Part shown: positions 262-475 of the stretch, one piece after another
Layout of the letters: every line of letters begins with the position of its first letter
How positions within the stretch are numbered: the stretch's first letter is position 1
Virus record (IMG/VR): IMGVR_UViG_2896595138_000009
DNA from: a virus
Taxonomy: Duplodnaviria; Heunggongvirae; Uroviricota; Caudoviricetes
Direction: 5' to 3' (one strand)
Length of the DNA stretch: 15,092 nucleotides
Program-made: the position numbers and the translations under genes
Notes under the pieces: generated by a model
What the model saw: the letters and a program-made list of their open reading frames with translations, nothing else
Told to the model about the DNA's origin: nothing
Databases searched by the model: none

Positions 262-475
262 TTCAATGGATTACCGTTAAATGATTTTAAAATCAGTAAG
301 TTGTATCGAGTTTGTATGCTTTACTGTCATTAACTTACTGTATGTTGATCCAGTATATTTAACCTTGATAAACTCAGTCCAGCAACACAAAACCGCAACA
401 CATTGCATTTTGTCCCGTAGAAAAGACTTGTATGTGTGAGCTTGTTTTCTGCGCCTACGCAGATAAGGATTGAGA

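Follow-up and report, generated by a model that had tools for sequence, protein, structure and literature searches.

Gene content of the window

The window analysed here, a stretch of 15,092 nucleotides from IMG/VR virus record IMGVR_UViG_2896595138_000009, opens with yfhL, which encodes a 2x[4Fe-4S] ferredoxin. Its open reading frame, called from the sequence and its translation and matched in NCBIfam, occupies positions 1-261 on the minus strand and spans 86 aa; the product scores 135 bits against the YfhL equivalog model, for which the cut-off is 86. The start codon lies at 259-261 and the stop codon at 1-3, and the window opens exactly on the stop. As detailed below, this reading frame is a chimera in which codons 17-86 are host DNA, codons 11-16 form the attachment core, and codons 1-10 are phage DNA. 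The neighbouring integrase gene, int (476-1873, plus strand), is divergent from yfhL, and a spacer of 214 bp (262-475) separates it from the yfhL start. A preliminary description had placed the integrase about 210 bp from the end of a core gene in AT-rich sequence. The distance and the base composition are borne out (36.0% GC in the spacer vs 49.2% in the whole window), but it is the start codon of yfhL, not its end, that int adjoins.

The int product is an intact tyrosine-type integrase of 465 aa. It matches Pfam PF00589 at 28.5 bits (cut-off 27.1) over residues 246-359 only and PHROG 1 at E=7e-26, and the annotations of 160 E. coli genomes call it a tyrosine recombinase. Candidate catalytic residues picked by eye (R268, K301, R386, H417, and Y429) are conserved with the integrase of Serratia phage OS31, which is 76% identical overall, and the HxxR histidine is not evident. 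The protein is an outlier among tyrosine recombinases, with an inserted stretch of about 70 residues ahead of box II. Its presumed kinship with tRNA-targeting P4-type integrases is weak: besides the modest PF00589 score, the Arm-DNA-bind_3 model of Pfam reaches 13.6 bits, which is sub-threshold (cut-off 27), and searches of NCBIfam and of PDB sequences returned no model and no relative. Convergent with int lies a gene for an excisionase-like helix-turn-helix (HTH) protein of 66 aa (1870-2070, minus strand), recognised through Pfam and PHROG. Its product scores 25.8 bits against HTH_17, just under the cut-off, and matches PHROG 4745, 66, and 1553 (excisionase / DNA-binding); the homologue in OS31 is annotated as an excisionase. 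In two related loci, Shigella flexneri SFBU1023 and E. coli ECMA0423, IS600 is inserted within int (locus position ~2597) after the equivalent of window position 1573. The interrupted integrase is truncated at about residue 366 and these islands should be immobilised, whereas int of the window is intact.

The remainder of the window appears to be a decayed prophage. An early-region remnant (2067-4736, minus strand), identified by Pfam, PHROG, and collinearity, holds a SNF2/DEAD helicase fragment and a Bro-N antirepressor and is 92-97% identical to complete E. coli yfhL prophages. Farther right lie IS600 (6018-7279), an IS4-like transposase gene of the DDE_Tnp_1 type (7487-8710, minus strand), a DUF4376 tail-fibre fragment (8669-9376), an ISSfl3-like element of the IS66 family (9430-12061), an ipaH-like type III effector gene with LRR_TTSS and NEL E3-ligase domains (12336-14161, minus strand), and a resolvase/invertase gene that runs off the right edge (14631-15092). 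The pile-up of insertion sequences spans 6018-12092. The ipaH-like gene falls into two overlapping ORFs (12776-14161 and 12336-13202), as though a frameshift or pseudogenisation had affected this copy in a Shigella/EIEC-type prophage remnant, and the right-hand mosaic as a whole is a Shigella/EIEC-type signature. With such heavy IS-mediated decay, the window copy may have lost its attR or its ability to excise.

An attachment core within the yfhL coding sequence

The empty site of E. coli K-12 has yfhH and yfhL adjacent, with a gap of 55 bp. In two other E. coli strains the pair is interrupted, by a prophage of about 30 kb in XH993 and by a Stx2b prophage of about 48 kb in STEC1590, both of which start with the same integrase. 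The junction was accordingly mapped by a three-way alignment in which the window served as attL, K-12 as attB, and the far junctions of XH993 and STEC1590 as attR. The alignment with an island-free genome, which the preliminary description had proposed, defined the junction to the base: the window equals K-12 through base 231 and diverges beyond it. Conversely, the far junctions are unrelated to K-12 before the core and identical to K-12 from the core onward. The only sequence that attL and attR have in common is 214-231, plus a degenerate 30-bp extension. This 18-bp core, TTCACACATATCACAATT, is identical in attL, attB, attR, and attP, and is the sole block common to all four. To judge from these alignments, strand exchange must fall within it, and we infer that the exact cleavage positions lie inside it as well.

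The core corresponds to nt 31-48 of yfhL, that is, to codons 11-16 (N-C-D-M-C-E), which are part of the first CxxCxxC cluster motif. Because the identity between the window and K-12 stops at 231, inside the open reading frame, the core is intragenic and all of 232-475 is phage DNA. The earlier expectation that the core would lie in 262-475 is thus overturned, as this interval belongs to the phage P arm and recurs essentially unchanged in free attP contigs. The accompanying expectation of a partner direct repeat at the far end fared better: in XH993 and STEC1590, which carry the same element, the repeat is present next to yfhH. There, attR retains the native ATGGCGTTG... start and its upstream DNA. 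No second copy of the core was found within the window, so attR, if still present, lies outside it; the sequence TTCACACATATCACAATTGATGCATTTTTTAG would mark an attR beside yfhH.

The arrangement of the phage site itself was recovered by searching IMG/VR with a junction-specific 30-mer (P' arm, core, P arm), which matched two contigs. In the first, L006, 1.4 kb of an XH993-type right end is joined exactly at the core to 3.2 kb of left end with the surrogate codons and int. The same order of P' arm, core, and P arm is found in the second, L007, and in a diverged contig, L061. In E. coli, the attP junction is expected to read ...TTTTTATTTGAT-TTCACACATATCACAATT-AATACAGCG... These contigs could derive from tandem lysogens instead of free phage, and the attP arrangement is evident either way. 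The P arm, which runs from the core to int (232-475) and contains the entire spacer, recurs with few differences in L006 and L007. Across 194-483, a segment that includes the whole P arm, the window differs at two positions from the XH993 and STEC1590 prophages.

The phage DNA next to the core rebuilds the gene that integration cuts. As attP contigs and codon variation indicate, positions 232-261 (minus strand; ATGTCTTTACTAATTACTAAACGCTGTATT) replace yfhL codons 1-10, including the start codon and the cluster ligand Cys9. The native codons 1-10 specify MALLITKKCI. Although the replacement is identical to the native 5' end at only 20 of 30 nt, the YfhL of the lysogen differs from that of K-12 solely by A2S and K8R, and Cys9 is kept. 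RefSeq annotates the fused gene as intact YfhL. Across ten genera, 11 columns of the phage-borne codons are variable, eight of them third positions and none second positions, and pairwise codon differences comprise 165 synonymous vs 47 non-synonymous changes. This pattern points to selection on the phage segment as coding sequence.

At the other end of the prophage, the native start with its upstream DNA and codons 1-16 remains at attR beside yfhH, in an 18-codon ORF that ends at a stop codon. The native yfhL promoter and start thus read into the prophage end through this ORF (10455-10508 in locus L003 and 1434-1490 in locus L005), and host-driven transcription may enter the P' arm at attR. 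Integration accordingly leaves a host gene read as phage codons 1-10, core, and host codons 17-86, with the native promoter and first 16 codons stranded next to yfhH. Beside its core, attP carries the diverged yfhL codons 1-10 and presumably also a ribosome-binding site and a promoter. With the 5' end replaced, expression signals must come from the phage. Predictions of sigma-70 promoters for the rebuilt gene are weak (9/12 matches) and not conserved across genera; no promoter conserved on either strand emerged when the window was scanned for the consensus and the ten orthologous spacers were examined with a custom scan. The rebuilt yfhL would presumably be expressed, yet the gene could be structurally intact and at the same time silent or otherwise regulated.

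The same arrangement is found well beyond the window. Among 5,426 complete E. coli genomes, yfhH and yfhL are contiguous in 5,266 and split in 160, the same number as carry int next to yfhL. A second place of match was seen in each of the 160 occupied genomes, in keeping with a native 5' end left at the opposite junction. A survey that searched one genome per species with an integrase alignment recovered ten complete loci, from Kluyvera, Sodalis, Serratia, Xenorhabdus, Citrobacter, Erwinia, Shimwellia, Morganella, Shigella flexneri, and E. coli. In each, a relative of the integrase (57-100% identical) lies about 214 bp from a divergent yfhL start. The yfhL gene is full-length in eight of these loci, complete with an altered C-terminus in Shigella flexneri, and frameshifted in one E. 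coli assembly. In all 80 loci collected from IMG/VR viral contigs, the surrogate start lies 213-215 bp from int; 71 have a complete yfhL (86-89 aa), four run off the contig, and five are attP-like. A megablast search of GenBank phages with the junction gave no match, and a protein search of sequenced phages returned Serratia phage OS31 as the sole match.

Most provirus contigs of this family in IMG/VR (L020-L099) open, like the window, exactly at the yfhL stop, with int at 476. Since they begin at that stop, the automated calls extend 213-231 bp into host yfhL, past the true edge within the gene. One contig departs from the common pattern. L087 (IMGVR_UViG_2554235145_000004) has a piece of yfhL, running from about codon 17 onward, some 180 bp upstream of its surrogate start; this piece is joined to a truncated P' arm, after which come core, P arm, and int, and the surrogate ORF has only 25 aa. 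Such a layout may be what an earlier occupant or a tandem insertion left behind.

Several other readings of the locus deserve consideration. Integration into the intergenic DNA next to yfhL, with the core in 262-475 and the gene untouched, would suit an interval that is AT-rich, non-coding, and situated between a core gene and int. It is almost certainly wrong, as identity to the empty site ends inside the reading frame, at 231; because 232-475 is missing from K-12 and from the 5,266 contiguous genomes and present in attP contigs; and because attL and attR share little besides 214-231. Integrases of many enterobacterial islands target tRNA, tmRNA, or sRNA genes, and such a gene hidden in the interval might be the real target. 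The chance of this is negligible. ARAGORN found no tRNA and no tmRNA in the entire window; Rfam (E<=10) gave no match over 1-2200 except a chance miRNA hit within int; and the folding of 262-475 on both strands was nothing unusual relative to shuffled controls (z-scores of -1.5 and -0.9). In any case, 262-475 is phage DNA and cannot be a host target. The dedicated search thus leaves standing the preliminary view that the integration site has neither tRNA nor tmRNA, and the sequence at the junction is protein-coding, without a tRNA 3' end.

It might also be argued that integration disrupts yfhL and that the reading frame of the lysogen is a non-functional fusion. The native promoter and start are indeed parted from the gene body, the rebuilt gene has no robust promoter prediction, and the arrangement is broken in L087. 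We nevertheless consider disruption quite improbable, since the fusion is in frame at all ten genome loci and yields a full-length product at eight of them and at 71 of the 80 viral loci, the two residue changes are conservative and spare Cys9, and the phage codons evolve mainly by synonymous change in a gene that RefSeq calls intact. A further concern is that int might be unrelated to the DNA downstream and the window a patchwork of different elements, as the IS600, IS4-like, and IS66-family elements, the tail-fibre fragment, the split ipaH-like gene, and the resolvase gene beyond ~4.7-6 kb could suggest. This is unlikely, as 1 to ~4,736 is collinear with complete yfhL prophages of 30-48 kb that run from int to attR beside yfhH; the assignment of int to the same element as the genes that follow it, up to ~4,700, is upheld. 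Farther right, the patchwork seems to reflect the decay of a single prophage by IS elements, to which pieces may have been added later. We therefore hold with high confidence that 214-475 is an attL junction and that the tyrosine integrase of a temperate phage recombines inside the 5' coding region of yfhL, so that the preliminary notion of a prophage junction beside yfhL is correct as to the junction but not as to its position, which is inside a gene whose 5' end is rebuilt.

Architecture of the phage arm

An alignment of the core and P arm from the ten genera reveals invariant islands amid diverged DNA. Nearest the core is an IHF-like site, AATCAGTAAGTTG (291-303, plus strand), which fits WATCARNNNNTTR and is the only match to it in 201-480. 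Its ATCA and TT positions are invariant in the ten genera and are seen again in most of the 48 distinct spacers taken from viral contigs; IHF would be expected to bind here. Two tandem repeats, GCAACACA, follow at 382-389 and 395-402 (plus strand), with a spacing of 13 bp. Within these repeats (382-402), 15 of 16 columns are invariant across the ten genera, whereas the flanks have diverged. We infer that they are arm-type Int-binding sites of a lambda-like complex attP. Counted from the core start, candidate arm sites of the YAACACA type lie at -104 (inverted), -59, and -47 in the P' arm and at +169 and +182 in the P arm, and this five-site map is kept to within 1-2 bp in the E. coli attP, the diverged L061 attP, and the attP of OS31. 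The reading as arm sites draws on this clustering and cross-genus positional conservation rather than on motif enrichment, as YAACACA occurs six times in the whole window vs 3.7 expected, which is not significant.

Closer to int, a conserved box, ATGTGTGAGC (432-441, plus strand), stands out in the same alignment and resembles the reverse complement of the left half of the core (ATGTGTGAAC). A Shine-Dalgarno sequence for int, AAGGA, lies at 465-469. Two further candidates in the spacer were rejected: a hairpin at 447-460, whose conservation is absent from the alignment, and a small protein encoded by a 52-aa ORF (281-439), which is conserved in none of the relatives. In K-12, the DNA upstream of the native yfhL (~4618-4630 of locus L002) contains, some 45 bp away from the core, the sequence CAACACAAACC, which is similar to the arm-type repeat of the phage (CAACACAAAACC) and is also present in the attR flank of L003 and L005. 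This likeness could be a coincidence or a trace of the acquisition of the segment by the phage.

Between the IHF-like site and the tandem repeats lies a LexA-like palindrome, TACTGTATGTTGATCCAGTA (336-355), of the form CTG-N10-CAG, detected by weight matrix and by conservation. With a matrix built from twenty E. coli SOS boxes, not a curated set, it scores 20.5 bits, close to the training median of 20.8, and the next-best match in the 15-kb window reaches 9.7. When the window was shuffled 100 times, the best scores had a 95th percentile of 15.2 and peaked at 21.3. The homologous position at the same offset scores 15-22 bits in nine of the ten other orthologous spacers, the Xenorhabdus one being the exception at 9.7, and the CTG-N10-CAG form is present in 41 of the 48 distinct viral-contig spacers. 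Across the whole 50-kb STEC1590 prophage, the box is the top match.

The box accompanies unrelated backbones and immunity regions, namely those of the Stx2b lambdoid phage, a DNA-polymerase-encoding phage, OS31, and the Shigella ipaH remnant, and a host factor is therefore more plausible as its ligand than a phage repressor. LexA may bind at 336-355. Promoter-like hexamers overlap the box on both strands of the window, and none is conserved across genera. As a tentative proposal, which we regard as possible though somewhat doubtful, the host LexA protein might regulate the attachment region directly. It could gate the int promoter, such that Int would be made only on DNA damage and independently of phage repressors, and/or place the rebuilt yfhL under SOS control. 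On sequence grounds, 262-475 would serve as the leader of the rebuilt yfhL and also contain an IHF-like site, a LexA-like operator, two arm-type repeats, and the ribosome-binding site of int; three further arm-type repeats would lie in the P' arm, at the opposite end of the prophage.

Relation to known integration systems

The yfhL locus has appeared in the literature as a site of prophage insertion. It was listed among genes "disrupted" by prophages (Bobay et al., 2013; PMC3603311), and reports of 2023 and 2025 presented it as a newly identified insertion site of Stx2b prophages (PMC10675304, PMC12029490). The Stx2b prophage of STEC1590 has the int and attL of the window, with the two differences noted above in 194-483, and the same core at attR. 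The Stx2b papers name the insertion gene only, and their prophages contrast with the window element, which is a remnant riddled with IS elements, carries an ipaH-like gene, and lacks stx. In the papers retrieved, neither the core nor the surrogate 5' end nor the architecture of the arms is described.

The present mapping resolves attB, attP, attL, and attR to the base level for a family of integrases that occurs across Enterobacterales, including Stx2b-converting STEC prophages and an ipaH-bearing Shigella/EIEC-type remnant. It also corrects the listing of yfhL as a disrupted gene or mere insertion site, whereas its reading frame is in fact rebuilt. For automated provirus callers, which cut at the yfhL stop codon, it places the called edge 213-231 bp outside the true boundary. 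More broadly, a core in the conserved stretch that encodes CxxCxxC illustrates that protein-coding sequence can match a tRNA gene as a broadly conserved landing site, and the integrase family could serve as a site-specific integration tool in many enterobacteria. The predicted LexA-like box offers a lead that would link the SOS response with integrase expression.

Several features recall established systems. A lambda-type attP has a short core, arms with repeated arm-type sites, an IHF site, and a small Xis gene. The yfhL phage site resembles it in its candidate sites, two in the P arm and three in the P' arm (one inverted), its IHF-like site, and its Xis-like HTH gene. Unlike in lambda, transcription of int begins within the P arm and runs away from attP, an arrangement shared with P4-like elements, and the arm-binding domain is detected only as a sub-threshold Pfam match. 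Integron integrase promoters are reportedly repressed by LexA, as said to have been described by Guerin and colleagues in 2009. The predicted likeness here consists of an SOS-box-like palindrome in the divergent region beside a tyrosine recombinase gene and a recombination site, although the enzyme in the present case is a prophage integrase. Campbell and colleagues are said to have found that phage 21 and e14 integrate in icd and that a duplicate segment borne by the phage keeps the reading frame intact. Those elements replace the 3' end of icd and the native promoter stays in place, whereas the yfhL phage replaces the 5' end.

The one match among sequenced phages, Serratia phage vB_SspS_OS31 (MT843276), has been reported to insert in a ferredoxin gene, with no mention of 5'-end replacement (PMC7556043). 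Its 23-bp att repeat falls in the same codons of the orthologous ferredoxin gene, directly beside a surrogate of its own, MALLITKR, and it shares the related integrase, the same arm-site positions, and a similar palindrome. It differs in its host genus and in its lambdoid phage backbone.

The nearest precedent for the strategy itself is provided by the dusA-specific integrases, whose elements integrate in the 5' end of the gene and bring an in-frame 5' end and a putative promoter, while the original 5' end is found at the far boundary (Farrugia et al., 2015; PMC4482086). As in the dusA islands, the target at yfhL is a conserved housekeeping gene whose 5' end is replaced, the core lies in that 5' end, the reading frame is full-length, and the native 5' end is found at the far junction. 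The two systems differ in their target, dusA as opposed to the yfhL ferredoxin gene, and at yfhL only ten codons are replaced, among them that of an Fe-S ligand cysteine. The yfhL system is further set apart by a core in the CxxCxxC-coding stretch and by the conserved candidate arm-type sites and the LexA-like box mapped in its P arm. The strategy of 5'-end replacement is thus already known from dusA, and the yfhL site is newly mapped.
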